35,277 nucleotides of DNA from a virus (lineage: Duplodnaviria > Heunggongvirae > Uroviricota > Caudoviricetes): IMG/VR virus record IMGVR_UViG_651053023_000020. One strand, 5' to 3'. Under the pieces are notes generated by a model. That model was given only the letters and a program-made list of their open reading frames with translations. It did no database searches and was not told the DNA's origin. This document shows positions 1-31,512 of this stretch, one piece after another. Each line of letters opens with the position of its first letter. Position 1 is the first letter of the stretch. The translations under genes and the position numbers were made by a program.

Positions 1-243
1 ATGTATACCTATAAAATGATTCAGGTGCCGCCTAATATTTCTGTAAAAGCCAAGGATAATAAGTCTGGCGTAGCTGCTGCATATCTTCAGGGGGTGGTCA
101 ATGAGCAGGCTGCTGAAGGTTGGGAGTTTCAGCGAGTTGATACCATTGGTATTGAAGAGCAGCCAGGATGTTTCAATGGCGGAAAGGCACAGGTTTTTCA
201 GTACTATGTGATTACTTTTCGAAAAAAAGTGCGAGATGTTTAA
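1..243 (+). CDS. small hypothetical protein (DUF4177-like); host flank or phage cargo
   Basis: 80-aa ORF starting at window base 1, stop overlaps start of next ORF; family assignment is weak recall only. Confidence 0.35.
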   Translation: MYTYKMIQVPPNISVKAKDNKSGVAAAYLQGVVNEQAAEGWEFQRVDTIGIEEQPGCFNGGKAQVFQYYVITFRKKVRDV

Positions 244-469
244 ATGGGTTAGTATTCGCCTGATTCTTTATTATCGCGCCCATGCGCCAGCAAGCATTCG
301 TAACAGATGTCGTTATACTCCAAGCTGCTCGGCTTATACCTTGATTGCAATAAGGCGCTTTGGTTTTTTTGAAGGGTGGCGATTAGGCTTGAACCGGATT
401 TATCGCTGTCGTCCGCCTAATGGTGGTGCTGATTATCCCCCGCATATTTGTAAATGTCGCAAATCGTGA
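236..469 (+). CDS. YidD-family (DUF37) small protein, membrane protein insertion efficiency factor-like
   Basis: 77-aa ORF with CRYTPSCS...YRCRPP.GGADYPP pattern resembling the conserved Cys/Pro motif of YidD; followed by hairpin terminator. Confidence 0.5.
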   Translation: MFKWVSIRLILYYRAHAPASIRNRCRYTPSCSAYTLIAIRRFGFFEGWRLGLNRIYRCRPPNGGADYPPHICKCRKS

Positions 470-487
470 GTGCGCAGGAAAAAGAAA

Positions 488-511
488 ACCCGCAGTTTTT
501 ACGCTGCGGGT
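488..511. terminator. bidirectional intrinsic terminator-like hairpin
   Basis: CCCGCAG / CTGCGGG stem with A-run upstream and TTTGTTGTT downstream, directly after the YidD-like ORF. Confidence 0.5.
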
Positions 512-930
512 TTGTTGTTCATGTCTGAGAGATAGGGTGCCACTTCAGCCAACCTTAGCAACCGATTGACGGGGGATTGCTCCCCCGTCGCGGTTTCCTT
601 ACTGCTTACACTGTAAGAACGCCGCAAACTCCGCTCCCCAAAAGCTCATCCGTATTTCACACAGCGAACCGTGCAGCATCCAGATGATGAGGATTACCGT
701 CACGCAGAACGTGATGGCCGTAAGCGATTTTTGCGACATAGCGCTTGCTCCTTTGTTGGAGAGGCGCTAACCTATCACTTGCTTAAGGTAGATATGTTAG
801 GGCCTCGGTTAAACAGAAATGTTTTCCGGGGCCTTTCCACATCTGGCCTTCGGGTATTCCCTCCGACCATCAGCCGAAAGGCACCCGCGCGTAATCTATC
901 GCTTTTTTGTTACTCCGGCAATTCTGCCTG

Positions 931-1191
931 TTAATTCTGAGGTAAAGGCAAACTCATCTGATTGTTTCCCCTGTGTGAAGCTGGCAGATCATGCCATGGG
1001 ATACCTTCTGATGAGTGAACGCCGGAGGCGTGTTTCGATGTAAATTTATGGAAAGCTTCCAGTGTTGAGAAGCATACGCCGCATTCCAGGTTGTTACACT
1101 GGTAATACTTTTGCCGCACGGTGTTTGAATCATTTTCCGGACGACTGGTGCGGATACGGGCAGATGCGCCACAAAGCGGACAACGGAACAT
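931..1191 (-). CDS. ogr: Ogr-type zinc-finger late-gene transcription activator
   Basis: N-terminus MFRCPLCG...YQCNNLEC matches the C4 zinc-finger layout of P2 Ogr; positioned immediately after D as in P2. Confidence 0.85.
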   Translation of the reverse strand: MFRCPLCGASARIRTSRPENDSNTVRQKYYQCNNLECGVCFSTLEAFHKFTSKHASGVHSSEGIPWHDLPASHRGNNQMSLPLPQN

Positions 1192-1233
1192 AGCGACCTC
1201 CCTTAACGTGGTGCTGTCGCTATTCTAAGTTCC

Positions 1234-2334
1234 TCACTCTGTTTCCGCTATCCATTCCGGGATTTTTGCCTCAAGCTCAAGCTGTGTGGTAAAGCCACTG
1301 TTATCAATGGTGTGCTCGGCTTTTGCAATAATCCAGTCCTGATTATCAATCTCGCTTTTAAATCCTGTTACCGTGCCATGCATTTCGGGGTAGAGTTCTG
1401 CGCGTCCACGTGCCAGTGTGATGGAGAATGATGCGGCTCCGCGTTGTAGCTGCTGCCACTTTGCCGCCGCTGCGCGTCTTGCTGCCTGCTCGTTCTGATA
1501 AGTCTTGCGTAACACAAACACGTTGCCTTCCGCACCTTCCATATAGTCACCTTCACGGCTGCTGCTTTTCTCTTTTTTCGGTTTGCGGCGTTTCACGCTG
1601 ACTTTTTTCTTTTTCCCGTAATTAAGATCAAGCCAGTAGGCGCGTACACCCGTATACGCCTCGCGGTCAGCAATGCGGAACTGATGGCGATCGCCGCTGC
1701 TGCGTGTGATGGCGAACGATGGCAACGGCTGGCCCTGTGCGTTCACGCCACCACCGGGCATGATGAATAACAGATTACCGCTTTTTACCGTGGTGATTGC
1801 GCCCAGCATTTCCGCCATGCGCGTAAGGAAGGACATGTCGCTTTCTTCGGTCTGGTCGGCGTGGTCGATTTCGATATCCATCAGCATTTCGCTGATTTGC
1901 GGTTTCAGACCATACCGATGAGCGATGGCGGATACCACACGCTCAACGGTCACATCATGCCAGGACACCTCACGTTTAACGTTAAATTCATCCCGAAAAT
2001 CTGCGCTTCTGGCTGAAACAGTCAGCCTGTCCGGCGGTCCTTCGTGAGCGATTTCATCAACAATGTAAGTGCCTTTTTCTGTCAGCGGTTCTCCTTTCCA
2101 GCCAATGAGAACCGTCAGGCGCGCGCCCCGTGGCGGTAGCTGCAACTGACCATCCGCATCATCCAGCGTGATGGTGAGCTGGTCCGCTTCAAATCCCCGG
2201 TTGTCGGTCAGTGACAGGCTCATCAGGCGCTCTGCCACGCCTGACAGCGTTTTACCCTCCGCGAGAATATCAAAATCCGGCATTTTCACGGGGTCTGTGC
2301 CCTGACTGAGCAATTGCATGGTGGTATCGGTCAT
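1234..2334 (-). CDS. D: tail protein gpD (late control gene D family)
   Basis: Translation resembles P2 gpD; start placed at internal ATG 2334 preceded by AGGGAGG rather than the track's extended 2466. Confidence 0.85.
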   Translation of the reverse strand: MTDTTMQLLSQGTDPVKMPDFDILAEGKTLSGVAERLMSLSLTDNRGFEADQLTITLDDADGQLQLPPRGARLTVLIGWKGEPLTEKGTYIVDEIAHEGPPDRLTVSARSADFRDEFNVKREVSWHDVTVERVVSAIAHRYGLKPQISEMLMDIEIDHADQTEESDMSFLTRMAEMLGAITTVKSGNLLFIMPGGGVNAQGQPLPSFAITRSSGDRHQFRIADREAYTGVRAYWLDLNYGKKKKVSVKRRKPKKEKSSSREGDYMEGAEGNVFVLRKTYQNEQAARRAAAAKWQQLQRGAASFSITLARGRAELYPEMHGTVTGFKSEIDNQDWIIAKAEHTIDNSGFTTQLELEAKIPEWIAETE

Positions 2335-2491
2335 CTGTTCCCTCCCTGTGCGGCATGGTCGCATGTGCGTGCGGAGGGGGTTACTGCTTTTTGTTGTCGC
2401 CGTGGCGGGAGAACGGCGCAGGGGTGAGATTACGCGCGTGGTGGGTGATGATTGTTGCCGAATCATTTAACGGATACAAGGGGCTGAAGCT

Positions 2492-3676
2492 ATGAGTGAA
2501 ACTCGTTTTCATGGTGCCCGTGTTACGGAAAATACCGACCTGGTAACAGCGATTAACGATGTTGATTCCAGCGTTATCGGTATCGTGGCAACGGCGGATG
2601 ATGCGGACGCGAAGCTGTTCCCGCTGAACAAGCCCACACTGCTGACCCGCGTCAATGACGTGCTGGGAAAATGCGGGACAACGGGGACGCTTTATCGTGC
2701 GCTTAAGGCCATCGCAGACCAGGTGAGCACAAAGGTGATCGTCGTTCGCGTGGCTGAACACAAAGAAGAAGACGGAAAGACGCAGGATCAACTGGTTATC
2801 GGTGGTTCTGAGGATGACGGCAGCTATACGGGGATGTATGCGCTGCTTGTTGCAGAGCAGGATGAAAGCATCGGATACCGTCCGCGTATTCTGGCCGCGC
2901 CGGAGCTGGACACGGAGGCTGTAACAAAATCCCTGTGCGTGATTGCAGGTAAACTGCGCGCGTTTGTGTATGCCTCATGTCACGGCTGTAACACGATGGC
3001 TGAGGCGATTACCTACCGCCAGAAATTCAACGAACGTGAGGTGATGCTCTTATGGCCGGACTTCATCGCCTACAACCCGAAAAGTGGCAAAAACGAAACG
3101 TTCCCCGCGTCTGCCTATGCGTGCGGCCTTCGTGCGTACATTGACCATGAGCAGGGATGGCACAAATCACTGTCCAACGTTCCGGTTAAAAATGTGCTGG
3201 GGATGTCGAGGCATGTGTTCTGGTCGTTGCAGGCCGAAGACAGCGATGCCAACAGCCTCAACAACAAAGAAATCACGACCATTATTCGTCGCAACGGGTT
3301 CCGCTTCTGGGGCAACCGCACACCGGAAACGAACGCCTACATCTTTGAGGTGTATACCCGAACCGCACAGGTGCTGGCTGATTCAATTGCGGAAGCGCAG
3401 TTTGAAACCATCGACAGTCCACTGACGCCTGCGAACGTGAAGGATGTTATCAGTGCCATCAGGGCAAAACTGGATTCACTGGTTACTGCCGGGAAACTGA
3501 TTGGCGCGGAGTGCTGGTATGACGTGGTGGATAACAGCACCACGGATTTACGTCAGGGGCGTGTGCGTATTCGCTACAAATATACGCCCGTTCCGCCACT
3601 GGAAGACATGGAGCTTTACCAGACGTTTACTGATGAATACTTTGAACCCGCATTTGCGGTGCTGGGAGGTGCCTGA
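2492..3676 (+). CDS. FI: contractile tail sheath protein gpFI
   Basis: 394-aa ORF with sheath-like sequence; SD upstream; stop overlaps tube gene start. Confidence 0.9.
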   Translation: MSETRFHGARVTENTDLVTAINDVDSSVIGIVATADDADAKLFPLNKPTLLTRVNDVLGKCGTTGTLYRALKAIADQVSTKVIVVRVAEHKEEDGKTQDQLVIGGSEDDGSYTGMYALLVAEQDESIGYRPRILAAPELDTEAVTKSLCVIAGKLRAFVYASCHGCNTMAEAITYRQKFNEREVMLLWPDFIAYNPKSGKNETFPASAYACGLRAYIDHEQGWHKSLSNVPVKNVLGMSRHVFWSLQAEDSDANSLNNKEITTIIRRNGFRFWGNRTPETNAYIFEVYTRTAQVLADSIAEAQFETIDSPLTPANVKDVISAIRAKLDSLVTAGKLIGAECWYDVVDNSTTDLRQGRVRIRYKYTPVPPLEDMELYQTFTDEYFEPAFAVLGGA

Positions 3677-4189
3677 TGGCTGTGCCAAAACATCTTCGCT
3701 TTTTTACGCTGTTTGTGGATGGTGAAAACGAAGTGGGTAAGGTGACGTCCGTCACTTTGCCTAAGCTGACGCGCAAAACCGACAGCTACCGGGGTGGTGG
3801 CATGATGGGGGCGGTAAGTATTGATCTCGGCCTGGACGACTCCGCGCTTGATGCGAGCTTTGTCATGGGGGGCGCAGTTCGTGAGCTGTTCCTTAAGTAT
3901 GGCGGCACGATTGACGGCACGCTGCTGCGTTTTGCGGGTGAATACTACACCGATGCAGAAAGCGACCTGTATGAAGTCGAAATGCGCGGACGTGTGACGG
4001 AAATTGATATGGGGGAAGCCAAAACAGGGCGAAGCCACATCACACACTTACGCCATTAAAAACACCTACTACAAGCTGAGCGTTAACGATCGCCCGTTGT
4101 GGGAGATTGACCTGCTGAACTTCATTTACCGGAAGGACGGCAAGGACATTGTGCCCGATCGCATCCGTTCCGCGCTTGGGCTTGGCTGA
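3676..4189 (+). pseudogene. FII: tail tube protein gpFII, interrupted by a +1 frameshift near 4027-4031
   Basis: Frame-1 ORF 3676-4059 matches the tube N-terminal region (SVTLPKLTRK...YRG.GM...DLGLDD...RFAG), frame-2 ORF 4004-4189 carries the C-terminal region; one extra base in a GGG-C-GAA context. Confidence 0.6.
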
Positions 4190-4243
4190 TAAGTAATATG
4201 CAGGCGGCGCAGTGCGTCGCCTCTGACTGAAAGGAGTTTCCTG

Positions 4244-4609
4244 ATGAAAGAGACGAAAAACATCGATACCGAAAACACGGTAGTTACTGACACTGTGAAA
4301 GAAACCAGTGAGCGTGGCGTAAAACTTACCCAACCAATTGAGCGAAGCGGCGAAAAAATCACGTATGTGGAGATCACCGGGGCTATTGAGCAGGCTGGAT
4401 CTCTGCGAGATTTGTCGCTGTCTGATGTGCTGAGTCTGAAAGCGGAATCCATGTTTACGCTGCTGTCACGCGTGACATCACCGCGACTGGATGAAGTGAC
4501 GATCAAAAAAATGGCATCCCGTGACTTTATTCAGTTATGTGTGGTTGCCGTAAATTTTTTGAGCGGTGCGGACTCTGGCGGGAAGAACGAACAGGCGACG
4601 GAAGCCTGA
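4244..4609 (+). CDS. E: tail assembly chaperone gpE
   Basis: 121-aa ORF with AAAGGAG SD, followed by overlapping -1 frame ORF as in P2 E/E'. Confidence 0.8.
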   Translation: MKETKNIDTENTVVTDTVKETSERGVKLTQPIERSGEKITYVEITGAIEQAGSLRDLSLSDVLSLKAESMFTLLSRVTSPRLDEVTIKKMASRDFIQLCVVAVNFLSGADSGGKNEQATEA

Positions 4610-4773
4610 TCACGGTTGTGTGCTTTGAGCACATAGAAGACTTTGTGGCAGATATTGCCGTTATTTTTAACTGGTCGCCCGCCGAAATCTTCATGATGAC
4701 GCCCGGCGAAGTGGTTAGCTGGCGTGAGCGGGCGGCACTTCGCAGCGGGAATGCAGACAATGAAGACTCTTGA
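4244..4773 (+). CDS. E+E': gpE+E' fusion made by programmed -1 ribosomal frameshift
   Basis: Slippery heptamer T_TTT_TTG at 4555-4561 in E frame; -1 frame continues open to stop at 4771-4773. Confidence 0.7.
4555..4561 (+). other. -1 programmed frameshift slippery site (TTTTTTG)
   Basis: X_XXY_YYZ heptamer positioned near end of E with open -1 frame downstream. Confidence 0.7.
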
Positions 4774-7567
4774 TATCCGGGTCGCTTTCAGCGCCGTTGA
4801 CAGGCTGACCCGACCTGCCGAAAACGCACGCCGCCTGATGGGGCAGTTTGGTGACTCCATCCAGCGAACGCAGGGGGCGATCAAAAATCTCGAGCGTCAG
4901 GCGCGTTCATTTGAGCGCGCCCGCGACGCTGTCAGTAAAGCGGATGCGGGTATCGTGAAAGCACGACGCCAGCTTAACGCCCTTAATCAGTTACAACGCA
5001 CGGGTACAGTGCTCAGCGAAAAACAACAAAAGCTGATGCAGCAGTTAAGCACCCGGCTTGAACGCCTGAATGAATCGCGCACACGGGAAATTCAGAAAAT
5101 GCGGGAGCTTGGCGGAGAGCTGAAACGCCACGGCATTTCCCTGACAGGCAGCGATAACACCATCCAGCAGGCCATCAGACGCACCGAACAGTACAACAAC
5201 CAGCTTGAACGCGAACGGCAGGCGCTTGCGCGTGTAACGCGGGCGCGTGAGCGGTATTCGCGCGTGCAGGAAACCGCGGGAAAACTGAAAACAGGTGGTG
5301 CGCTGGCAATTGGTGCGGCAGCGGCGGGCGGCTATGCTGCCGGGCGTTTTTTGCAGCCTGCGATCGGGTTCGGCAAAGAGATGTCCCGCGTTCAGGCACT
5401 GACGCGAATCGACCAGAACAGCCCGCAGTTTAAGGCGCTGCGTGAGCAGGCGTTAAAACTGGGCTCTGAAACGCAGTTCACCGCAGGCGATGCCGCCAGT
5501 GGACAGGCATTTCTTGCAATGGCTGGCTTTACACCACAGGCCATTCAGGCTGCGCTCCCTGGCGTACTGAGCATGGCAACGGCTGGCGGTATGGACCTCG
5601 GTGAGACGGCGGATATTGGCTCAAATATTCTGACGCAGTTCGGTCTTTCTGCTGACCAGATGGACCGGGTCGGCGACACACTCACCGCAGCGTTTACCCG
5701 TACCAACACTGACCTTCGCGCACTGGGTGAAACCATGAAATATGCAGGTCCGGTGGCGGGTAAGCTGGGAATATCGCTGGAGCAGGCCGCAGCGATGGCG
5801 GGCGTGCTGGCGAATATGGGTATCAGGGGGAGTGATGCTGGTACGGCAATGCGTGCCAGCCTGGCTCGTCTGGCATCACCGCCAAAGGCGGCAGCAGAGG
5901 CGCTGAAAGAGCTTGGCGTGTCTGTCTCGGATGCCGGGGGCAAAATGCGCCCGATGGAGGATGTGCTGGCTGACCTTTATAAAGCTACCCGCAAATACGG
6001 GGAAGTTGACCGGGTATCGTTCTTTAAGGACATTGCCGGAGAAGAGGCTTTCACATCATTTATGGCCCTCGTTGATGCGGCAGGTGACGGCTCCTTACCC
6101 AAACTGAGAAAAGAACTTGAAGGCGCGCGCGGTGAGGCTGAACGCACGGCAAAGGTTATGGCCAACAACCTTGACGGCGATCTGAAATCACTCAGCAGTG
6201 CATGGGAAGGGTTGCGCATCCGCATTGCAGATCTGATTGACGGTCCGCTGCGTTCTGTCACGCAGTGGCTCACGCGTGTGTTATCAAAGGTGACGGCGCT
6301 GGCGCAGGCCCATCCCGCACTGACGCGCCAGCTACTGATTGCAGGCGGCGCACTGCTGGCAATGACTGCAACGGTTGGCTCGTTGTCGCTGGCTATTGGT
6401 GTGCTTGCTGGCCCGCTGGCAAAACTGCGTCTTGGTTTTTCCCTCCTGACCGGATCAATGAATGCTGTCAGGGTTCTGCCAGCACTATGGGGAATGGTGA
6501 CGGGTTCCGTTTCTTTACTGGGAGGCGCTATCGGGGCGTTGTTCAGTCCGGTTGGTCTTATCGTGGCTGCGCTTGCCGGAGCTGCCGTTCTTATCTGGAA
6601 ATACTGGGATCCCATCAGGGCATTTTTTGCCGGGGTGTTCAGCGGGATTATGGAAAGGCTGACCCCGTTGCGCGAAACCTTTGAACGGTTTGGTCCTGTT
6701 TTTGACGCAATCGGGAGTGGGATCAGCCAGGTGTTTAACTGGTTTAAATCGCTGCTGTCACCGATGGAGTCCAGCAAGGAAACTCTGGATAAATGTACCA
6801 GTGCTGGCGAGATATTCGGTAACGTTCTTGGCGGTGCGTTACAACTTGTTCTGACACCTGCAAAAATGTTGCTGGATACGCTGGCGTGGATACTTGAAAA
6901 GCTTGGTGTGCTTCCGGATGAAGCGGAAAGGGCGCGCAAGAAAATCGAAGACGCACAGCGTGCGGCCATTCTTCAGGACAAGGTTGCCTTGCTTCAGGGG
7001 GACCTGGCGAAAATCAATCCACCGAAGCCTGTGGAAAATGGCAATGGCACCGGAGGTGATAACCCCAAAGACAATAAACCGCTCACAGACAGCAATACCG
7101 GTACGCTGCGCAGACTCAGCAAAATTGCTGATAACACAGGTAAGCTGGTTGAGGAGACGAAAAAACGCATTGGCCCCGGCGATATTGTCTTTAAAAACCT
7201 GCCCCGAGCACTTGCTGTTCGTGGGGAGTGGCAGGAGCGGAAGATTGCGCAGGTCAGTAAGCCTGCCCCCGCAATTAATATCACACCCGTGGTCCCGGCT
7301 CCGCTGCCTCCGGCGCTGGTCCCTGTTGTTGCGGCCAGCTCCCGCCCGGTGGCGGAGGCTATACGATCTCCAGTGGCATCAGTTCCTGTAACTTCCCGTA
7401 ACCGGGAGCCTGTTGCCTCCGGATTTGGTGGTGAAATTCATGTTCATCTGCATAACGTTGTTACGCAGAATCCCCGCGAACTGGCGAAACTGGTCGGTGA
7501 AATGGTCAGGGCAGAAATGGAACGGCGCGCCCGTGCCGGGCGTGGCAGTTTTTACGATAAAGATTGA
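4751..7567 (+). CDS. T: tail tape measure protein gpT
   Basis: About 940-aa protein with coiled-coil N-terminal part and hydrophobic/Gly-Ala-rich middle; start uncertain (ATG 4751 or 4760, track starts at GTG 4724). Confidence 0.85.
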   Translation: MQTMKTLDIRVAFSAVDRLTRPAENARRLMGQFGDSIQRTQGAIKNLERQARSFERARDAVSKADAGIVKARRQLNALNQLQRTGTVLSEKQQKLMQQLSTRLERLNESRTREIQKMRELGGELKRHGISLTGSDNTIQQAIRRTEQYNNQLERERQALARVTRARERYSRVQETAGKLKTGGALAIGAAAAGGYAAGRFLQPAIGFGKEMSRVQALTRIDQNSPQFKALREQALKLGSETQFTAGDAASGQAFLAMAGFTPQAIQAALPGVLSMATAGGMDLGETADIGSNILTQFGLSADQMDRVGDTLTAAFTRTNTDLRALGETMKYAGPVAGKLGISLEQAAAMAGVLANMGIRGSDAGTAMRASLARLASPPKAAAEALKELGVSVSDAGGKMRPMEDVLADLYKATRKYGEVDRVSFFKDIAGEEAFTSFMALVDAAGDGSLPKLRKELEGARGEAERTAKVMANNLDGDLKSLSSAWEGLRIRIADLIDGPLRSVTQWLTRVLSKVTALAQAHPALTRQLLIAGGALLAMTATVGSLSLAIGVLAGPLAKLRLGFSLLTGSMNAVRVLPALWGMVTGSVSLLGGAIGALFSPVGLIVAALAGAAVLIWKYWDPIRAFFAGVFSGIMERLTPLRETFERFGPVFDAIGSGISQVFNWFKSLLSPMESSKETLDKCTSAGEIFGNVLGGALQLVLTPAKMLLDTLAWILEKLGVLPDEAERARKKIEDAQRAAILQDKVALLQGDLAKINPPKPVENGNGTGGDNPKDNKPLTDSNTGTLRRLSKIADNTGKLVEETKKRIGPGDIVFKNLPRALAVRGEWQERKIAQVSKPAPAINITPVVPAPLPPALVPVVAASSRPVAEAIRSPVASVPVTSRNREPVASGFGGEIHVHLHNVVTQNPRELAKLVGEMVRAEMERRARAGRGSFYDKD

Positions 7568-7573
7568 GGAGTC

Positions 7574-8068
7574 ATGGCCATGATGATGATCTACGGCATG
7601 TTTGTTTTTGAGCTGCGCACGCTGCCGCATCAGCAGTTACAGCAAAACAAAAGCTGGCGGCATGTGAAAAATGAACGCGTTAACCGTTCAGCAAGCTGGC
7701 AGTATATCGGTGCAGGTGATGATCGCATCGTTCTTTCTGGTGTGCTTTATCCTGAAATTACAGGTGGCGAAGTGTCGCTGTCGCTGCTGACCACGCAGGC
7801 GTATACAGGACGACCCTGGCCTTTGATTGATGGCGTCGGGCAGATTTACGGCATGTATGTCCTGACTGAAACGAATACGACCCGCTCCGAGTTTGATCGC
7901 TACGGTAAGGCGAAAAAGATAGAATTTTCACTGACTCTTGAACGCTGTGATGAGGATTTGCGGGAGCGCCTGCAATCCTCATCGTTCAGTGATATGCTGT
8001 CCGGCTTCAAAGATAAGGTGACATCATCTCTTAACAGCGCGGCCAGTTCAGTTAAAGGGCTGTTCTGA
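7574..8068 (+). CDS. U: tail protein gpU
   Basis: 164-aa ORF resembling P2 gpU (N-terminus MMMIYGMFVF...SWRH...NRS); GAGGAG SD. Confidence 0.85.
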   Translation: MAMMMIYGMFVFELRTLPHQQLQQNKSWRHVKNERVNRSASWQYIGAGDDRIVLSGVLYPEITGGEVSLSLLTTQAYTGRPWPLIDGVGQIYGMYVLTETNTTRSEFDRYGKAKKIEFSLTLERCDEDLRERLQSSSFSDMLSGFKDKVTSSLNSAASSVKGLF

Positions 8069-8077
8069 TTTAACACA

Positions 8078-8107
8078 AAAACCGCTAATGGTCAGATTAG
8101 CGGTTTT
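8078..8107. terminator. bidirectional terminator hairpin between convergent U and invertase genes
   Basis: Perfect 12-bp stem AAAACCGCTAAT / ATTAGCGGTTTT, loop GGTCAG, flanked by A-run and T-run; overlaps last codons of invertase. Confidence 0.6.
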
Positions 8108-8696
8108 CATTTTCCTGAGTCTGCCCGGTTGTTTCTTCAGTCTGTATATCGCCTACAGGGTGATAACGATAAATCGTCGATGTGCCAATGCCGTAAATTA
8201 TTGCCAGTTGTTTTCTGTCGTGCCCGTTTTTGATTAGCCTTGCTATTTGCTCATGCTGTTCTTTTGTCAGCTTCGGTCGACGTCCGCCTGTGCGCCCCCT
8301 TGCGCGCGCTGCCGCCAGCCCGGCCAGTGTACGTTCAACAATTAATTCACGTTCCATTTCAGCCAGGGCACCCATCACGTGGAAGAAAAAACGCCCCATT
8401 GGAGAAGATGTGTCTATGCTGTCGGTCAGACTGCGAAAATTAATCCCTCGCTCCCGTAGTTCCCCGACGAGAGAAATCAGATGTTTCATGCTTCGCCCGA
8501 GGCGATCCAGTTTCCAGACAACCAGCGTGTCACCTTTTTGAAGGCGCTTTAAAGCGCGTTTTAATCCCGGTCGGTCTGTCTTTGTCCCGCTTAATTTATC
8601 TTCAAATATTTGTTCACATCCTGCACAAACAAGAGCGTTTCGTTGCAGGTCTGTATTCTGGTCATTTGTTGATACCCTTACATAGCCAATCAGCAC
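8097..8696 (-). CDS. serine recombinase, DNA invertase of Gin/Pin/Cin/Fin family
   Basis: Translation LIGYVRVSTNDQNTDLQRNAL...GDTLVVWKLDRLGRS... is near-identical in pattern to Gin-type invertases; start placed at GTG 8696 with GGGAGA SD. Confidence 0.9.
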   Translation of the reverse strand: MLIGYVRVSTNDQNTDLQRNALVCAGCEQIFEDKLSGTKTDRPGLKRALKRLQKGDTLVVWKLDRLGRSMKHLISLVGELRERGINFRSLTDSIDTSSPMGRFFFHVMGALAEMERELIVERTLAGLAAARARGRTGGRRPKLTKEQHEQIARLIKNGHDRKQLAIIYGIGTSTIYRYHPVGDIQTEETTGQTQENENR

Positions 8697-8750
8697 GCTG
8701 AATCTCCCGTCCAAAAGCGTAAATCATGCCATGCAGGTCAGAAACGGCCA

Positions 8751-8776
8751 TTATCTAAAACCTCGGTTTACAGGAA
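8751..8776. other. gix-like 26-bp crossover site (left boundary of invertible segment)
   Basis: TTATCTAAAACCTCGGTTTACAGGAA, matches gix/hix architecture; central dinucleotide TC. Confidence 0.8.
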
Positions 8777-10855: not shown

Positions 10856-12832
10856 TTAAATACTCCCCACGTTATACCAAGTCCCATTAATGCAATACTG
10901 AATTGGCCTTGCCTGAGTTGTATCAATTAGTTCATCTCTATTTGAGTTAACGGAACCGGTAACAACATAACCTGACTTATCAGACCAACCAGGTCCATTC
11001 CATGTCTGAACAGATGATAGGCCTCCTAAACGGACGCCTGTAATAAATCGTGAATTACATTCTGCTTTGGTATATGCACCAATATCTCCTGCTGATGGTT
11101 TGTGAGCGGTTGTATATAGTTGCGCCCATCCAGACCAATTAGCATCTGCTGTATCTCGTCGGGAGCGAATATATGCCGGAGCATGACCGCCGCTGGTCCC
11201 ACTCCACCCAATAAATAACTCTCCTTCGCCAACTGCCGCTACACCAGTAAGATGAAGAACGTTACCATAAGCAAAAGGATATCCATTTTTGTACGCTTCA
11301 TACATTTGGATACCTGGCGTACCCTTTGCGCTCCCACTTAATGCTGTAACACGGTTTCGGGATACTAACGTATTAATATTTATATCACTGGAACCATCAA
11401 ATTTAACGCCATTAATATTTCTTGCTGTTTTTAGCTTTGTTGCAGTAGCGGCATTGCCGGACAGCTCCCCAGAAAGGCCACCGCTGAATGTTTGTCGATT
11501 GGTCCAGGTATTCGCTGTACTGAGTAACGGTATTTTTTCCCCGCTTGTGCCGAGTTCTCGTAAACCGAGGTATTCGATAACGGCAGCAACGGTCGATTTC
11601 GCAAGAATATCCCGCCCGACTTTTGTCAGGGTTGCCAGGCTGGCGACATCATTCCCCGTAAAATACGGAAACTTGTCTGCCGCAGTAGCAAGCCCGGCCA
11701 GCGCCGTCAGGGTGGCATCTTTCGGTTGCTTACCCGCAAGCGCGTTAGTCATGGTGGTCGCAAAATTCGGGTCGTTTCCCAGCGCCGCCGCTAACTCGTT
11801 CAGCGTATTCAGTGCGTCAGGTGACGAATCTACAAGGGCGGCAATCGCAGCCATAACGAAAGCCGTGCTTGCGATTTGGGTATTATTCGTTCCCTGTCGC
11901 GCAGTTGGCGTTGTTGGCGTTCCGGTCAACGCAGGACTGTTTAAGGGCGCTTTCTTGTTCGTTTCATCCATTACCGCCTTAACCGCTTTCGATGTCGCGG
12001 CCAGTGTTTCAGACGTGCTGTTGGTGGCACTACTGAGCTGGACTATCCCTTTTTGTGCCGTCGTGGCGTCCTGAGCGGTATATTTTGCGTTAGCAAGGTC
12101 ATACGCGGCCTTTACTGCTTTCGGCGTTGCAGCCTGCGTTTCAGACGTGCTGTTGGTGGCGCTACTGAGCTGGACAAGGCCTTTTCGCGCTGTAGTGGCG
12201 TCCTGTGCGGTATATTTCCCGTTAGCAAGGTCATAGGCTGCCTTGACCGCTTTCGGCGTTGCGGCCAGTGCTTCAGACGTGCTGTTGGTGGCGCTACTGA
12301 GTTGAACAAAGCCTTTTGCGGTCAGCGAGGCGTCCGGGTGACGTCGTGACTGTTCGTGCTCTGAGATTTTGTCATCCACATATTTGCGGGTTGCCAGAAC
12401 CACAGACGGGTCGATTTTCAGCGTGATGGCTTCGGTGTTCGTGACAACCAGAATCATGCGGATAGTCTGGGTGCGTCCACTGCCTTCCTGCAACTGCGGT
12501 TTGTACGTTTCCGGGCAGTTCGCCACCGCAATGAGTACGCCTTCATCATCATAAAGCCCAATCTCACGGATCCAGAATCCTCCCTCGTTTTCAGGGATAA
12601 TTTGCTCCGCAATAATCTGGCTCTGATTGTTAGGGTCAACGCTCAGAAGATTCAGCGGTGCAATGCGTTTCTGGTTAATCAGTTTTGTCTGTGCCGGGTC
12701 TGGTGTCGGTAATACACCATTCGCATCACCAACGGCCATTTGCGTCAGATTCAGCTTACTGCCGAGCATCGTCGCGTTAGCCAGTCGTGCCGCGCCCTGA
12801 TTAGTCAGAATGGCGTAGTATTTCACTGTCAT
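10856..12832 (-). CDS. H: tail fibre protein gpH (constant N-terminal part plus currently fused variable C-terminal part)
   Basis: 658 aa; N-terminus resembles P2 gpH; gix-like site lies inside the coding region at 11555-11580. Confidence 0.9.
   Translation of the reverse strand: MTVKYYAILTNQGAARLANATMLGSKLNLTQMAVGDANGVLPTPDPAQTKLINQKRIAPLNLLSVDPNNQSQIIAEQIIPENEGGFWIREIGLYDDEGVLIAVANCPETYKPQLQEGSGRTQTIRMILVVTNTEAITLKIDPSVVLATRKYVDDKISEHEQSRRHPDASLTAKGFVQLSSATNSTSEALAATPKAVKAAYDLANGKYTAQDATTARKGLVQLSSATNSTSETQAATPKAVKAAYDLANAKYTAQDATTAQKGIVQLSSATNSTSETLAATSKAVKAVMDETNKKAPLNSPALTGTPTTPTARQGTNNTQIASTAFVMAAIAALVDSSPDALNTLNELAAALGNDPNFATTMTNALAGKQPKDATLTALAGLATAADKFPYFTGNDVASLATLTKVGRDILAKSTVAAVIEYLGLRELGTSGEKIPLLSTANTWTNRQTFSGGLSGELSGNAATATKLKTARNINGVKFDGSSDININTLVSRNRVTALSGSAKGTPGIQMYEAYKNGYPFAYGNVLHLTGVAAVGEGELFIGWSGTSGGHAPAYIRSRRDTADANWSGWAQLYTTAHKPSAGDIGAYTKAECNSRFITGVRLGGLSSVQTWNGPGWSDKSGYVVTGSVNSNRDELIDTTQARPIQYCINGTWYNVGSI
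11555..11580. other. gix-like 26-bp crossover site (right boundary, inside H)
   Basis: TTCTCGTAAACCGAGGTATTCGATAA, 22/26 match to reverse complement of the 8751-8776 site; central dinucleotide GA. Confidence 0.8.
11985..12360. repeat. three tandem repeats of about 126 bp inside H (42-aa fibre repeat VQLSSATNSTSE...KYTAQDATTA)
   Basis: Repeated ttcagacgtgctgttggtggcgctactgag... at roughly 12008, 12134 and 12264; approximate extent. Confidence 0.7.
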
Positions 12833-18315: not shown

Positions 18316-18387
18316 AAAAAAATCGGGCGGTGGGTGCGCGGTGTAAACGGTCACGGAGTCAAACCGGAACACCGCGCACGCCGCCCG
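18316..18387 (-). terminator. long hairpin plus U-run between M and L (possible attenuator)
   Basis: Inverted repeat CGGGCGGTGGGTGCGCGGTG / CACCGCGCACGCCGCCCG, followed on the minus strand by TTTTTTT just before the L Shine-Dalgarno. Confidence 0.4.
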
Positions 18388-21315: not shown

Positions 21316-23067
21316 ATGATTCAGGACGCTTTTGTGCGCCAGCGTGCGCGGCAACTTTACTGGCAGGGTTATCCGCCCGCAGAAATATCACGTCTGATGG
21401 GAATAAACCCGAACACGATTTATGCGTGGAAAAAACGCGACCAGTGGGATGAAACGCCACCCGTGCAGCGTGTCACGCAGTCCATCGATGCGCGCCTCAT
21501 CCAGCTTACTGAAAAACAGAATAAAACAGGCGGTGACTTTAAGGAAATAGACCTGCTGACCCGGCAGCTTAAAAAACTGCATGATGGCCAGCCGGATGCG
21601 ACGGCCACAGGAAAGAAAGGCCGGGCGAAAAAACTCAAAAATCATTTCACGCCGGAACAGATTGCCGCACTGCGGGAAAAAATCATCAGCAGGCTGGAGT
21701 GGCATCAGCGGGGCTGGTTTGACTCCCTGACCCTTTGCAGGGAAGCCGGGATACGTAACAGGATGATCCTGAAATCCCGACAGATTGGGGCGACCTGGTA
21801 TTTTGCACAGGAAGCACTGCTGATGGCGCTGCGTGACGATGTGGCGCAACCTTACCAGCGTAACCAGATTTTTTTGTCTGCGTCGCGTCGTCAGGCGTTC
21901 CAGTTTAAAAGCATTATTCAGAAGGCCGCGGCTGAAGTTGATGTGGAGCTGAAAGGGGGCGATAAAATCATCCTCTCCAACGGCGCAGAGCTGCATTTTC
22001 TCGGCACTTCTGCTGCGTCGGCACAGTCCTATACGGGCAATTTTTATTTTGATGAATTTTTCTGGGTCAGTCGCTTTGCTGAACTGCGCAAGGTGGCTGG
22101 CGCTATGGCAACCCTCAGCGGACTGCGGCGCACCTACTTCTCCACGCCATCCACCGAAACGCACGAGGCATACGCCTACTGGAACGGCGACCGCTGGAAC
22201 GAGAAAAAGGCCTCGCATAAACGCCAGCGTTTTTCTGTGGACTGGAAAACGCTGCATAACGGGCTTATCTGCCCTGACCGGACGTGGCGGCAAATTGTCA
22301 CGCTGGAAGATGTGGTTAATCACGGCTGGAAACACACCGATATCGACGAAATTCGTGATGAAAACACCGAAGACGAGTTCCTCAATCTCTATATGTGTGA
22401 GTTTGTCCGCGAAGGGGAATCGGCATTTAACCTGAATATCCTGATTGGCTGCGGTGTTGACGGATACGACGACTGGAAAGACTGGAAACCTTTTGCTCCC
22501 CGCCCGATGGGGAATCGTCCGGTATGGATTGGGTATGACGCAAACGGAAGCAGTGGCAACGGCGACAGCGGCGCTGTGTCCGTGGTGGTTCCTCCGGCTG
22601 TTCCTGGTGGCCGTTTTCGAACGGTGGAGACGCGACGCGTTCAGGGGCTGGAGTTTGAAGAACAGGCCAGAGTCATTGAAGAGTTCACGTGTCGCTACAA
22701 CGTGGAACACATCGGCATTGATGTGACGGGCGGGAACGGGGAGGCTGTTTATCAGATAGTGAAACGGTTTTTCCCTGCCGCTATTCCGTACACCTTCACG
22801 CTGTCATCAAAACGGTCGCTGGTACTGAAAATGCTGCAAATAATGCGTGCCGGGCGGTGGGAATACGATCGCGCCGAACGCGAGCTGGTCGCGGCCTTTA
22901 ACGCCGTGCGTAAGGTGAAAACACCGGGCGGCTTTATCACTTACGAAACGGACCGCGCGAGGGGGATCAGCCACGGCGACCTTGCGTGGGCAACCATGCT
23001 TGCTGTCATTAACGAACCAATTGGCGGCGAAGGAGAAAACGAGCGTTTCACGGTTATGGAGTTCTGA
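21316..23067 (+). CDS. P: terminase ATPase (large) subunit gpP
   Basis: 583 aa, P2 P-like, GGGGGAG SD. Confidence 0.9.
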   Translation: MIQDAFVRQRARQLYWQGYPPAEISRLMGINPNTIYAWKKRDQWDETPPVQRVTQSIDARLIQLTEKQNKTGGDFKEIDLLTRQLKKLHDGQPDATATGKKGRAKKLKNHFTPEQIAALREKIISRLEWHQRGWFDSLTLCREAGIRNRMILKSRQIGATWYFAQEALLMALRDDVAQPYQRNQIFLSASRRQAFQFKSIIQKAAAEVDVELKGGDKIILSNGAELHFLGTSAASAQSYTGNFYFDEFFWVSRFAELRKVAGAMATLSGLRRTYFSTPSTETHEAYAYWNGDRWNEKKASHKRQRFSVDWKTLHNGLICPDRTWRQIVTLEDVVNHGWKHTDIDEIRDENTEDEFLNLYMCEFVREGESAFNLNILIGCGVDGYDDWKDWKPFAPRPMGNRPVWIGYDANGSSGNGDSGAVSVVVPPAVPGGRFRTVETRRVQGLEFEEQARVIEEFTCRYNVEHIGIDVTGGNGEAVYQIVKRFFPAAIPYTFTLSSKRSLVLKMLQIMRAGRWEYDRAERELVAAFNAVRKVKTPGGFITYETDRARGISHGDLAWATMLAVINEPIGGEGENERFTVMEF

Positions 23068-24153: not shown

Positions 24154-24409
24154 TTTATGCCCCGACTCTCCAGCTCCTGTATCAATCAGATAATTTCACG
24201 ATGCTTTTCTGCTGATTGCCATCATCGACAGTCAGACTCTTACGCAATCCCACCGCGTTGACTGCATGTTCTCGCCGTCTCAGTGCGATTTTGACGGCCT
24301 TACCTAAATCAAAAGCCCTCACGTCTTTTTCACGCTCAGCGTGAGAAATACAGCCATTCTGTTGTATCTCTGCGACATCGTTCAGGGAATGCTATTTACC
24401 CCCTGAAAC

Positions 24410-24440: not shown

Positions 24441-24592
24441 AAAAACGCGTTTTTTGTGCACGCACGGATCCTTGACGGATCCAGCCGCCATGCGGGCCGG
24501 AAGGGTAAAAAGTCGTTCAAAAAAATTGTGCAAATTTGTGCACTATTGTGCAGCAGGGCGATGTGTGATTATCGCCCTGGTTTGTCGTGGAT

Positions 24593-25132
24593 CTAATTAT
24601 CTTCTGTCTCCTGCCACGAGACTTTTCCGCCTGCCTTTATGATGGCTTGCTCAACATCCCGTTCGTATCGCAAAGGCTGGAATACGCCGTTAATGAAATA
24701 CTCCTTTGGGTCCGGGATCGATACGGTAAATTTGTCATTCTCTGGTTTTGGTATTGGTGAGACTGGATGCTCGTTTTTGGCAAGTTTTTTTATGACTCCC
24801 TCGTATTTTTCTTTTGTACATTGCATCGCCTCTTCAAAAGAAAGCGCTTTGTTACGCATTAACACGGCGTACTTTAGTGCATCCTGTGCTTTCTGGAATT
24901 TAAGTGCATAGTCCGTGGCGATTTTTTCCAGTTCAGCAGCCCGCCTTCGAAGCCCTTCAATCTCACCATTGCGGGCGATGAGGTTGCAGCACATTCTTTC
25001 ATTCTCATCCAGCAACACCAGCACAACCGATGGTGTCACCTGTTCATGGAAAATATCCGCATCATATCCCCAGTCATCATGTATTGCCTGCTCTGCCGCT
25101 TCACGCAGTGCCTGATAGTCAATCTTGCTCAT
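24593..25132 (-). CDS. Ead/Ea22-like protein (function unknown)
   Basis: N-terminal IDYQALREAAEQA motif typical of Ea22-like proteins; last gene of accessory operon. Confidence 0.5.
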   Translation of the reverse strand: MSKIDYQALREAAEQAIHDDWGYDADIFHEQVTPSVVLVLLDENERMCCNLIARNGEIEGLRRRAAELEKIATDYALKFQKAQDALKYAVLMRNKALSFEEAMQCTKEKYEGVIKKLAKNEHPVSPIPKPENDKFTVSIPDPKEYFINGVFQPLRYERDVEQAIIKAGGKVSWQETEDN

Positions 25133-25653
25133 TGGATGACTCCTTTGTGTTGCGTCAGCTCTTCCTGTGCCTGCATCATGCGATTGACCTGAACGCGTGT
25201 GCGTCGAACGGAAAAAACAAACAGATTCAAAAGGCGGCGCATCTCTTTGTCCTCATGTCGCGCATGACGGATAAAGGTAAGTCGGTAGAACTCGGATTCG
25301 GCAGCGCGTTGAATCAACGACAGATCAAAGTGAAGTGCTGGTCTGGTGCATTTTGCGCATCTGGCGGCAAGCTCTGGCATCAATCTCTTAACGAAGGTGT
25401 TTTGTACTGCTTTGTTGAGTTGTGTCTGCATCCAAATCGCAAATTTCAGCGAACGCATGAGCCGGATCGCGTCGGGCAACGGCAGATAGATCATGCTGGC
25501 GGTTTTGGGTAGCGGATGAATCATTTTCACGGAGACGCGATCGCGCAGTGTTCGAAAAATCGTGTTCCCGACAACAGACTCCACGGAGACAGGGCAGGGG
25601 GCCAGACCAACCCGCAACGCGTTCGTCATGAACAGATATTCATCTTTTTTCAT
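25129..25653 (-). CDS. hypothetical protein (accessory operon)
   Basis: ORF 25129-25719; preferred start ATG 25653 with AAGGA SD (174 aa); stop overlaps Ea22-like start; no family recognised. Confidence 0.5.
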   Translation of the reverse strand: MKKDEYLFMTNALRVGLAPCPVSVESVVGNTIFRTLRDRVSVKMIHPLPKTASMIYLPLPDAIRLMRSLKFAIWMQTQLNKAVQNTFVKRLMPELAARCAKCTRPALHFDLSLIQRAAESEFYRLTFIRHARHEDKEMRRLLNLFVFSVRRTRVQVNRMMQAQEELTQHKGVIQ

Positions 25654-25719
25654 CGTGTTTTCCTTAGTGCGGGGGCGACAGTGCGCCCCGATAAAATTAA
25701 AAGCCGTCAAATTCGTCAT

Positions 25720-26052
25720 TCATCTTCCTGCTCCCTGCGTTCCTTGTTCTTCTCGGATAACGCTGTTGCACACTTCCACACACTCGTCGCAGATGAAAAC
25801 GTCGTCCCCGGCAATTAACTTTTTGATGGCGTGCTGTGGTTTCTTGCAGAAGCTGCAATAAAGCGTTTGCCTGATAGATACGGATGATGTGTAGGATGTC
25901 AGCCTCGCGATGTCGTTCTTGCGGCGCAACATCACACGGCAGCACTCAACCAGTTTCTCCGGGGCGATTTCTTCCTCTGTGGCGAGCGCCTCCAGTCGTT
26001 CGAGTATGTTGAAGGCTTTTTCCTCGGTAATTGCAGAATGCGATGTGGTCAT
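25720..26052 (-). CDS. protein with C-terminal ClpX-type C4 zinc-finger (ZBD) domain
   Basis: [39 protein letters not shown] closely matches the ClpX N-terminal zinc-binding domain; start at ATG 26052 with AAGGAG SD. Confidence 0.65.
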
Positions 26053-26063
26053 CTCTTTCTCCT

Positions 26064-26264
26064 TCAAAGTTCAGTGTGCTGACAGAGGTGTCCTTTGCGA
26101 CAGACCAGGACGCTTCCCTTACTTGAGTCGGTGATTGTCACCGTGCCGTCATCGCACTGGACAACGATGACGGTGTTGCTCTTTTCCGTTGCGCAGTTCG
26201 GCGTGGTTGAATGCGCCAACGGAATGAAAAACAGCGAAAAAAGTAATGTCAGTCTTTTCATCAT
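26064..26264 (-). CDS. small secreted protein with signal peptide and four Cys
   Basis: [19 protein letters not shown] signal-peptide-like N-terminus; 66 aa; tightly linked upstream of the ZBD gene. Confidence 0.45.
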
Positions 26265-27646: not shown

Positions 27647-27755
27647 TTACGGGATTCTGAAATCCCGTTTTTGCCTGTTTTGTGCGCGCTTCATATATCG
27701 CTGCGCGTTTTTTGCTCATTTACGGGATTCGTGAGTCCCGTTTCTGTCTGTTTTT
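27647..27755. repeat. two about 36-bp direct repeats each containing a hairpin (candidate parC-like centromere/operator)
   Basis: ttacgggattctgaaatcccgtttttgcctgtttt (27647-27682) and ttacgggattcgtgagtcccgtttctgtctgtttt (27719-27755); second copy overlaps the 3' end of gene A. Confidence 0.5.
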
Positions 27756-30512
27756 GTTTCCGCTGGTCAGGCCACCCCGCAGCAGGTCTGCTTTGCGGCG
27801 GGCGCGTTCAGTGGTTTCACTGATTCTCTGTGCGTGCTCTGCGTCGCGGATGGCGCGCAGCATGTCAGAAAGCACGGTAACGGGTGTTTTCATGGTGTTC
27901 TGGTCCTGCTGAAGTGTGGATGCCAGGCGTGCGGCGGCTTCAGGGTCTGATGCCCCCAGCTGTGCCAGATAGCTGGCGGCCGGGTTATGGCGGATCTCCG
28001 TGCTGCTTACGCCGTGATTACGGCTCAGGCGCTGCCAGAGCTGCGTGATTCGGCTGTCCGGGCGGGTATCCGGTTTGCGTACAATTTCAAATCCCTGCGG
28101 TGCAATGATGCTGCCGTCAACGTACAGACTGCCGCCCCGTAACAGGTGCTGCATCTGTTGTTCACCGATATGCAGGCCGAGAGATTCAGCAGACTCCCGC
28201 CATTCTTTAGCGAGTAACTCGTGGTTATCAGGCAAAGGCCGCTGCTGTTTGCGGCTCTGTGTCCAGTTCTGCATTTCATCGCTGCTGTTTTTTGCCTGTT
28301 TGTCACGAAGCGAACGCATCAGCGCCCGGCGTTCGTGCCGTTTCAGTGAGCGCATCCATTCATTTACTTCAACGCCGTCAGGAAGCTGCGGCCACGGTGC
28401 TGGCCGTTCTTCCGGCTGTTCTGTCCCGTTGTTGCCTGTTTCCTGTACACGGGGACAGTTATTGCCACGAGTCCAAGGGGCGGTAGGGCCGCCCTGAAGG
28501 TCAAAACCATTTTCGCGGGCGCTGTCTTCCGCTTCCGGTTTACGTCTTACCAGCTTCCAGTTATCCGGGTGCGTGCACACGCGGGAAGACTCCCCGATGA
28601 GCGGCGACCAGATCCCGTAAATCTGTACACTCTGCTCGCCGTAATCGTTCAGCTCATCTGCGAGGTCGTAGGCGGTGCGAATCAGGTAGTCTTTACGTGG
28701 AACAAGTACGCCGCCCTGTTTTTCAATGTAGGAGGCAAAACACCCGGCATCAGCGGCAGCGAGTACCGCATCCATTGCATCATCCTTCAGCCGTTGCGGG
28801 CCTTCCGGGTTGCGTGCCATCTGGCTGGCAAGGCGGCGGAGTTCACGCCATACCTGACGGGAGGGGATGCCAAAGAACTGGAACTGGCGGACCCGATGAA
28901 GACGCGCCCAGCCAATGGCGCGCTCCACGCTCTCGGCCATTGATTTTCCGGTTTCGTGGTCAACGCGTGGCTTGCCCGTTTTCGGGTCGATGCCATCTAC
29001 GGCGCGGCTGTCCAGGTTTTTTCCGATGTAGGTCGCGATATAGCTGGTTGGTGTGCCTTTTGAGCCGTCGACATACTCCGCCTTAAAGCGCGGAGTAATA
29101 TCATCGCCCAGTTCGTGACGATCTTCCTGAATGGCAATATCGCGGGTGATGGCCACGATGCTGTCGATTTCTTCCGGATGAGCAAAGACCATCATATGCC
29201 AGTGCACGGTGCCGTCATGGTGAGGCTCCACCGTGCGGATGCCATACCAGCGCAGGCCGTCGCGGTTCAGTTTTTTGCGGACCGCCGCAAAAAACGTGTT
29301 AACCAGGTAATCGCTGGAGTCGCGCATGGTGGCCCCGTTCCATTTGGGGTTCGGATGACCGTTCTCCGTTGTTGCGTGGTATTTTGACGGGCAGGTGACA
29401 GTCAGAAACACCGCTTTGTCACCACGGGCTTCGGCCAGAAGTTCCAGCCCCTTCATGGTGGCCATCATTTCTGCCTTACGGTGAACCGGGTTACTTACTC
29501 CCGCGTAATACACTGTCTCGAGATCAATCGTGAACCCGTCTTCATTTTCCAGCATGAAACTTTTCAGGAAATCGCGTGTTTTCTCGCGCTGTGCGCGAAA
29601 CTCGCTTAACGCGTCCTGGCTCAGATAGGGCGATGTTTTTCTGGAAACCAGACAGGCGGCGCGGAGTTGTTCTTCTCTCCACTCGCAACGTAACAGCCAC
29701 AGTTTGCGTTTCCACCATTCTGCACAGGTCAGGCGAAGGATTGCGCCCGGCAGCAGCTCCGTGTCCGGTTCGTTCCTCCGGTCTTTGTCTGTTGTCAGTG
29801 CGTCATAATGTGGAGGCATGGCGTGCAGGTGTAACGCCATGCGGGCCAGCATCTGATACGCCTTCAGCGTTACATCCATGGTCAGTTCGCCATCGGTCGC
29901 GCCAAAGCCATCGCAGAGTTTTTCGAAGGTGCTGCTGAACATCGCCGCCGTCATGGTGGCCAGTGTCTGTATCTGGTGTTTGTTGAGCTGCGGCAGGTAA
30001 AGCAAATCGTCCAGGCGTTCGCGTCCGGCAAGGGAGCGATAACCCTGTGTCAGCCAGCGGTGATCGGTGCGCTCCAGACGTTCGAATATTTTGCGCAGGT
30101 TTCCGCGCGCGTAGCGTTCAGCCTGCCAGCTCTTTTTGCCTTTCTGACGATCGGCTTCCTGTTTTTTGCGCAGGAAGGAGAGGTGGCGAATAAGCGGATC
30201 GCGCAGATAGGACGGCAGCAGGCGCAGCGAGGCCATGGCTTCATCCACCGCGCCGCGTGCCTGTTTTCTGGCATCTCCTGCCAGTGTGATGGTTTTGTCC
30301 TGTTTTTCCTGTGCGTCCAGGCTTTTATTAATCAGGTTGCCCAGCGGCGTTGCGGAGAACGCCGCATCAGCCATTTCCTGGCGGCGCTCGTTCTCTACCC
30401 GGTAGGCATCCAGCCAGGAGGAAAGCGCGGATTCAGGAGCGGGGATCCCCGTTCCTTCACGCCCCACTGCGTGGCGCGGTTGTTGCCAGTCCCTGATGTA
30501 CTCTGCCGTCAT
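27720..30512 (-). CDS. A: replication initiation protein gpA (rolling-circle endonuclease)
   Basis: 930-aa ORF with HUH-like GTVHWHMMVF and YIATYIGKN motifs; noticeably longer than the P2 A length I recall. Confidence 0.85.
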   Translation of the reverse strand: MTAEYIRDWQQPRHAVGREGTGIPAPESALSSWLDAYRVENERRQEMADAAFSATPLGNLINKSLDAQEKQDKTITLAGDARKQARGAVDEAMASLRLLPSYLRDPLIRHLSFLRKKQEADRQKGKKSWQAERYARGNLRKIFERLERTDHRWLTQGYRSLAGRERLDDLLYLPQLNKHQIQTLATMTAAMFSSTFEKLCDGFGATDGELTMDVTLKAYQMLARMALHLHAMPPHYDALTTDKDRRNEPDTELLPGAILRLTCAEWWKRKLWLLRCEWREEQLRAACLVSRKTSPYLSQDALSEFRAQREKTRDFLKSFMLENEDGFTIDLETVYYAGVSNPVHRKAEMMATMKGLELLAEARGDKAVFLTVTCPSKYHATTENGHPNPKWNGATMRDSSDYLVNTFFAAVRKKLNRDGLRWYGIRTVEPHHDGTVHWHMMVFAHPEEIDSIVAITRDIAIQEDRHELGDDITPRFKAEYVDGSKGTPTSYIATYIGKNLDSRAVDGIDPKTGKPRVDHETGKSMAESVERAIGWARLHRVRQFQFFGIPSRQVWRELRRLASQMARNPEGPQRLKDDAMDAVLAAADAGCFASYIEKQGGVLVPRKDYLIRTAYDLADELNDYGEQSVQIYGIWSPLIGESSRVCTHPDNWKLVRRKPEAEDSARENGFDLQGGPTAPWTRGNNCPRVQETGNNGTEQPEERPAPWPQLPDGVEVNEWMRSLKRHERRALMRSLRDKQAKNSSDEMQNWTQSRKQQRPLPDNHELLAKEWRESAESLGLHIGEQQMQHLLRGGSLYVDGSIIAPQGFEIVRKPDTRPDSRITQLWQRLSRNHGVSSTEIRHNPAASYLAQLGASDPEAAARLASTLQQDQNTMKTPVTVLSDMLRAIRDAEHAQRISETTERARRKADLLRGGLTSGNKNRQKRDSRIP

Positions 30513-31187: not shown

Positions 31188-31368
31188 GGTGTTTGGCCTC
31201 TTCGTTTGTGAGTTTTTGGATACTCACCAACCAGAGTTGAGAATCTCGGGGTGGCGAGACGTACGGGGTTCTCAACACCGGCAAACGAAGAAACCGGCCC
31301 GACCGAAGTCGGCCCCGTACGCCCCACCATAATTCTGATGCGAAAAAGACGTGGCAATACAGTACGCA

Positions 31369-31389
31369 CAAAAAAACCGCTGGCGCGGT
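31369..31389 (-). terminator. intrinsic terminator-like hairpin inside early operon
   Basis: Minus strand reads AACCGC-GCCA-GCGGTT followed by TTTTTTT. Confidence 0.5.
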
Positions 31390-31512
31390 TGTGCGCTTCG
31401 TTTGTCAGCAGGTTGAGAATCCCGGCACCCGTTTTATGAGGTGCAGCGGAAATGTAACCTGACTGATTGCGGTATGGCAAGCGGTTTTTTTGTGTGTGCA
31501 TGTTCTGGTTTC

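Follow-up and report, generated by a model that had tools for sequence, protein, structure and literature searches.

Why does a P2-type prophage that is otherwise complete have its tail tube gene spread over two reading frames? The question is raised by a 35,277-base stretch of viral DNA (IMG/VR record IMGVR_UViG_651053023_000020; hereafter the window, i.e., the whole stretch that was analysed), and it bears on whether the gene should be regarded as recoded, as inactivated, or as wrongly recorded. A first-pass annotation had named a genuine mutation, a sequencing or assembly error and, less likely, a recoding event as possible causes; comparison with relatives leaves the first two. The split is an unprogrammed one-base lesion, for which an artefact and a recent mutation are about equally likely.

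The window and its relatives

The window represents a whole prophage of the P88-like type, which belongs to the genus Xuanwuvirus (Peduoviridae, P2 family). In alignments, it is collinear with Escherichia phage P88 (KP063541) over its whole length and in the same permutation, with base 1 corresponding to P88 position 35667 and base 35277 to P88 position 108, at the end of the integrase gene, and the conserved blocks show 95.6-99.1% nucleotide identity. When all 53 P88 proteins were used as tblastn queries, 52 were detected in the window, mostly at 97-100% identity, and only a hypothetical gene (P88 10524-10862) gave no match. Of these 52 proteins, 50 are encoded at full length and in a single frame, the two exceptions being the tube gene and replication gene A. 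The window does not simply repeat a known genome: it is a distinct mosaic, with substitutions of its own against each of the relatives fetched, and long stretches matching it at 99% identity or more were found in no phage record and in no complete E. coli record.

Several further features of the window were recorded. Two cargo ORFs, one of 80 aa (1-243) and one YidD-like (236-469, 77 aa, Pfam YidD), lie at the phage end and are uninterrupted both in the window and in three related assemblies (L009, L013, and L014). Between these cargo genes and gene D are a hok/gef toxin gene (602-739), which is 100% identical to that of P88, and an ogr/Delta late-gene activator (931-1191, minus strand), both intact. 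A pair of 30-nt inverted repeats (8747-8776 and 11555-11584) bounds a 2.8-kb invertible tail-fibre segment, which adjoins a Gin/Cin-type invertase (8097-8714, minus strand). P88 and L009 have this segment in the opposite orientation, and thus the fibre gene that is active in the window (10856-12832, minus strand, 658 aa) has an alternative C-terminus and chaperone. An intergenic 11-bp deletion relative to most relatives lies at 24306, downstream of the portal gene, and the neighbouring cargo region (24593-26264), which holds small ORFs together with genes resembling Ead/Ea22 and a ClpX zinc finger, is variable. Two Rfam matches above the gathering score, to C4 antisense RNA (79 bits) and to the Hfq-binding sRNA isrK (62 bits), fall within the variable early region at 31247-31334 and 31370-31444 on the minus strand.

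The tail operon

The features that bear on the split are collected in Table 1. The stop codon of the sheath gene overlaps the ATG of the tube gene, which fixes both the identity and the start of the latter. With P88 proteins as tblastn queries, no second tube gene was found in the window.

Table 1. Coordinates of the tail operon features and of the two private indels in the window
Feature	Position	Strand	Description
Tail sheath gpFI	2492..3676	+	intact; 394 aa; 100% identical to P88
Tube gpFII	3676-4189	+	P2-type tail operon, between sheath gpFI and chaperone E
Tube gene, N-terminal piece	3676..4059	+	frame 1, 127 codons; from ORF, Pfam, and tblastn with the P88 tube protein
AAAA run with one extra A	4021-4024	+	AAA in relatives (GCC AAA CAG GGC)
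Tube gene, C-terminal piece	4025..4189	+	frame 2, 54 native codons (QGEATSHTYAIKN...ALGLG)
Tail chaperone E	4244-4609	+	ORF; 100% match to P88 E
Slippery heptamer T TTT TTG	4555-4561	+	in gene E, from sequence
Tail chaperone E'	open to 4773	+	-1 frame; 100% match to P88 E'
Tape measure T	4760-7567		tail operon member
gpU	7574-8068		tail operon member
Replication gene A indel	27751-27755	-	A5 on the minus strand (T5 on the plus strand) where relatives have 6

The operon does contain a recoding site, and this site is the heptamer in gene E, not the tube gene. We take the heptamer to be the P2-type -1 frameshift site, as assigned from established knowledge of the P2 FETUD operon. Together with the overlapping E' frame, it is 100% conserved with P88; in public annotations E' is listed as a separate 'GpE family' ORF. 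The E/E+E' frameshift thus belongs to the same tail operon as the tube split, approximately 530 nt downstream of it, but the two differ in kind: the former is a -1, conserved, and programmed event, whereas the latter is +1, unique, and unprogrammed.

The lesion in the tube gene

The proposed switch from frame 1 to frame 2, with a frame-1 stop at 4057-4059, was borne out by the ORFs and their translation. The upstream piece starts at ATG 3676 and is closed by that stop (TAA); its codons 1-116 are native, Lys116 being the last native residue before the shift, and codons 117-127 (TGRSHITHLRH) are aberrant. The downstream piece ends at the native TGA (4187-4189), and frame 2 is open from 3998. The first-pass annotation had placed the extra base, a C, at 4027-4031, which must be corrected: an alignment with five relatives, which include P88, PhiR44_2, P88_4B11, and E. 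coli FDAARGOS_1299, has a single gap column, where the window reads GCC AAAA CAG and the relatives GCC AAA CAG, so that the additional base is an A within 4021-4024, a few bases upstream. The same gap recurs in pairwise alignments with KSC9, FDAARGOS_1299, and P88, and was also seen against L009-L014. The comparison with tube genes of related phages, which had been recommended as a check, thus showed AAA in all relatives and AAAA in the window alone.

Deletion of one A restores a 170-aa protein that is identical to the tube protein of all eight relatives tested, in agreement with the earlier statement that the two pieces together give a tube protein of normal length. The gene corresponds, in the same place, to gpFII of P88 and other Xuanwuvirus phages (WP_000290450.1/AIZ95156.1), and the tube genes of the eight relatives differ from that of the window by 0-8 nucleotides, all silent. 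Such complete protein identity combined with exclusively silent changes indicates that the tube protein is under strong purifying selection. Unlike its Xuanwuvirus counterparts, however, the 170-codon ORF of the window is split into 127 codons and a 54-codon remainder. The latter shows no nucleotide differences from the corresponding part of L001, L009, L013, and L014.

The two pieces match adjoining parts of the Pfam family PF04985 (Phage_tube), the frame-1 piece covering model positions 1-118 (E 2.8e-29) and the frame-2 piece positions 115-165 (E 3.7e-12), and they are therefore one split gene rather than two chance ORFs. The restored protein covers the model from end to end (1-165 of 165; E 7.5e-47; 159.6 bits against a cut-off of 22.4), which is the full-length profile match expected of a family member. 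It also aligns over residues 1-167 with the tube protein of the R-type (R2) pyocin, PA0623 (PDB 3J9Q, 5W5E, 6PYT), with E values of 6e-25 to about 1e-25. The position directly after the sheath gene is likewise that of a tube gene, but the uninterrupted ORF of approximately 170 codons that belongs there is lacking. As written, the gene would be a pseudogene of the PF04985 family. Expression of the C-terminal piece on its own was considered and rejected: its only in-frame start, TTG at 4004, is not preceded by a convincing ribosome-binding site, and ATG 4009 belongs to the upstream frame.

The split thus consists in one added A (AAA to AAAA) within gpFII of a P88-like prophage that is otherwise complete. 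Translation of the gene as written would lose the native frame after Lys116 and stop 11 codons further on. The resulting 127-aa product would retain only the first approximately 116 residues of the P2 FII/pyocin tube fold and lack its C-terminal third, and a tail tube could not be built from it.

Distribution of the extra base

The extra A is unique to the window. When 61 nt with the site at their centre were searched against 5,426 complete E. coli genomes, 1,356 records with 1,495 places were identified, and at none of these places was the 61-mer with AAAA present, the best matches being 60/61, with the gap as the one difference. The tube gene occurs in up to three copies per genome. A 36-mer with AAAA was found in no IMG/VR contig and in no JGI metagenome contig, whereas the 35-mer with AAA was found in at least 120 IMG/VR contigs, all 120 listed copies of which carry AAA. 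The AAAA form was not found in GTDB species representatives, but the wild-type 35-mer is missing from them as well, so that this zero carries no information. At the protein level, the truncated 127-aa product has no record in an exact-protein index of 153 billion gene positions.

The surroundings of the lesion give the same picture. The tape-measure protein of the window (935 aa) recurs unchanged in 36 blocks of the protein collection, and an intact 170-codon tube gene was present at all six places among the tape-measure matches listed. Three of the assemblies with an identical tape-measure protein, L009, L013, and L014, also share the left junction of the window, and over 234-4275 (approximately 4 kb comprising hok, ogr, D, sheath, and tube) every base is equal apart from the extra A. 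It follows that the downstream, now untranslated 3' part of the tube gene has accumulated no change.

Is the split a recoding event?

A conserved programmed event at the tube split is excluded by these data. A selected +1 site, which would regulate tube output or give two products, should be conserved, yet not one of the E. coli copies carries the extra A and the IMG/VR copies are unshifted. In addition, the tube gene is a single 513-nt ORF in every inspected relative with annotation or called genes, one chain of approximately 168 aa makes up the tube protein both in the Pfam family and in the solved pyocin structures, and the recoding site of this operon lies elsewhere, in gene E. The sole point in favour of programmed +1 recoding is the clean junction of the two frames at a codon that can re-pair, since AAA (4021-4023) can be exchanged for AAA (4022-4024) in the P site. 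Because the shift is not conserved, this explanation is refuted for practical purposes, and we give it next to no weight.

The features of the site lead to the same judgement. In prfB, the +1 shift takes place at CUU UGA C behind an upstream Shine-Dalgarno-like element, which is spaced by 3 nt. The window resembles prfB in its re-pairable P-site codon and in a G-rich stretch upstream; however, the codon that follows in the zero frame, ACA, is not a stop and is not known to be slow or hungry, no homologue conserves the shift, and the GGGGG at 4011-4015 is 5 nt, not 3 nt, from the shift codon. This G-run is part of the codons for Met-Gly-Glu, which are conserved in all relatives. Folding of 4005-4095 revealed no RNA structure (z = +0.68), an Rfam scan gave no match near the lesion, and a run of four A's falls short of the approximately 7-9 or more A/T that transcriptional slippage uses. 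The earlier ranking of recoding as the less likely option was therefore sound, in that no other copy is shifted and the site lacks known +1 or slippage features.

A weaker form of recoding deserves separate consideration, namely that the indel is real and leaky, with the P-site Lys-tRNA slipping +1 from AAA to AAA so that a little full-length tube protein is made. Low-level compensatory frameshifting at 'problem indels' is a recognised class (review PMC5009743). Re-pairing in the +1 frame would be perfect, the product would equal the wild-type 170-aa protein, and the upstream GGGGG might serve as a Shine-Dalgarno-like stimulator. Nonetheless, ACA is the next codon, the G-run is ordinary coding sequence in relatives and is spaced by 5 nt, no RNA structure supports the shift, and a run of A4 falls well below the length needed for transcriptional slippage. 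Moreover, the tube is needed in hundreds of copies, and a trace amount would not rescue normal yields. We thus regard leaky decoding as improbable, and slightly more doubtful still is the corollary that the lysogen harbours a hypomorphic prophage with a trickle of wild-type tube protein supplied by a Lys-tRNA slip on AAA-A. If true, a phage structural gene would here offer a natural example of a problem indel offset by corrective frameshifting.

A second private indel and the quality of the record

The tube gene is not the only one affected. Gene A (27720..30512, minus strand) also differs from its relatives by the length of a homopolymer: a change from T6 to T5 replaces the last 20 residues by 10, giving a product of 930 aa instead of the 940 aa of relatives. 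Of 251 E. coli places, not one was identical to the T5 allele, T6 is present in each of the 14 additional relatives fetched (L015-L028), and the 930-aa product has no record in the exact-protein index. Relative to the first relatives, four run-length differences were found in the window, of which those at 4021 and 27751 are private. The other two are shared polymorphisms: A7 at 18316-18322 occurs in 182 records (91-nt query), and T6 at 24450 is shared with strain P13-6. The window therefore contains exactly two private indels, both of which change the length of a homopolymer and shift the frame, while the rest is intact. As a test of whether the record is prone to homopolymer errors, this pattern is suggestive, not decisive.

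Public records of this phage family are often frameshifted, and many of the frameshifts are private homopolymer-length changes; KSC9, for example, has at least four frameshifted prophage genes. A private extra A is likewise present in L024 (GCA_000194535.2 contig AFAB02000154.1), at the equivalent of window position 21682, where it splits the large terminase into 434 + 135 aa; in the left arm of the same prophage (L013, from the same assembly), the tube gene is intact. The P88 record itself was obtained by Roche 454 sequencing (PMC5285337). Near its position 35297, it has T8, in contrast to T7 in the window (365-371), L009, L013, and L014. The T8 disrupts the YidD-like ORF, no gene being annotated there in P88, and it is probably a frameshift error in the P88 record.

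Artefact or genuine mutation?

Two explanations of the extra A thus have to be weighed. The one that we rank slightly above the other holds that the base is a homopolymer-length miscall introduced during sequencing or assembly and that the tube gene of the actual phage is a normal one encoding 170 aa; we put the probability of this explanation at roughly 0.5. The two private run-length changes, the lack of any other lesion, and the frameshifts seen family-wide together tilt the balance slightly towards such an artefact. This tilt is restrained by several considerations. Although the T6 run is a classic consensus-error site, the A3 run is not. Polymerase slippage in vivo favours homopolymers too, so that the pattern discriminates weakly between the two explanations, and the two remaining homopolymer differences are shared and real, which means that the record is not riddled with run-length errors.

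The other explanation, which we consider to fall somewhat short of an even chance, is a genuine and very recent inactivating mutation, in which replication slippage would have added an A in the lysogen. Prophages with a single inactivating frameshift are common in nature, and the mutation is what the sequence as given encodes. Furthermore, the window is a real, distinct mosaic whose other run-length differences are true polymorphisms, the private frameshift in gene A would suit a prophage that is starting to decay, and complementation is conceivable where a genome has up to three copies of the tube gene. Nonetheless, the allele occurs in no other assembly, the untranslated 3' part contains no substitutions, the 4-kb flank shows no differences from three assemblies, and the other structural genes are intact. 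The lack of secondary decay and the intactness of the structural genes imply that the mutation, if real, would be extremely young.

Implications

In either case, the lesion is a frameshift of an ordinary type, caused by one base in a well-known gene and private to one record; its relevance is limited to annotation and curation, and it opens no new biological question. The most suitable annotation of the locus is gpFII, major tail tube gene, with a frameshift, i.e., a pseudogene or a probable sequence error, and neither two hypothetical ORFs nor a recoding event. By homology, the genes for lysogeny, replication (subject to the change in the gpA tail), head formation, and lysis appear intact. 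Thus, if the mutation is genuine, excision, replication, and lysis of the host could still take place, but this P88-like prophage, although otherwise complete, would have no tails of its own and would be virion-defective unless another P2-like prophage supplied the tube. Such a defect would, in turn, alter what is predicted about inducibility and about transfer by the phage from its host.
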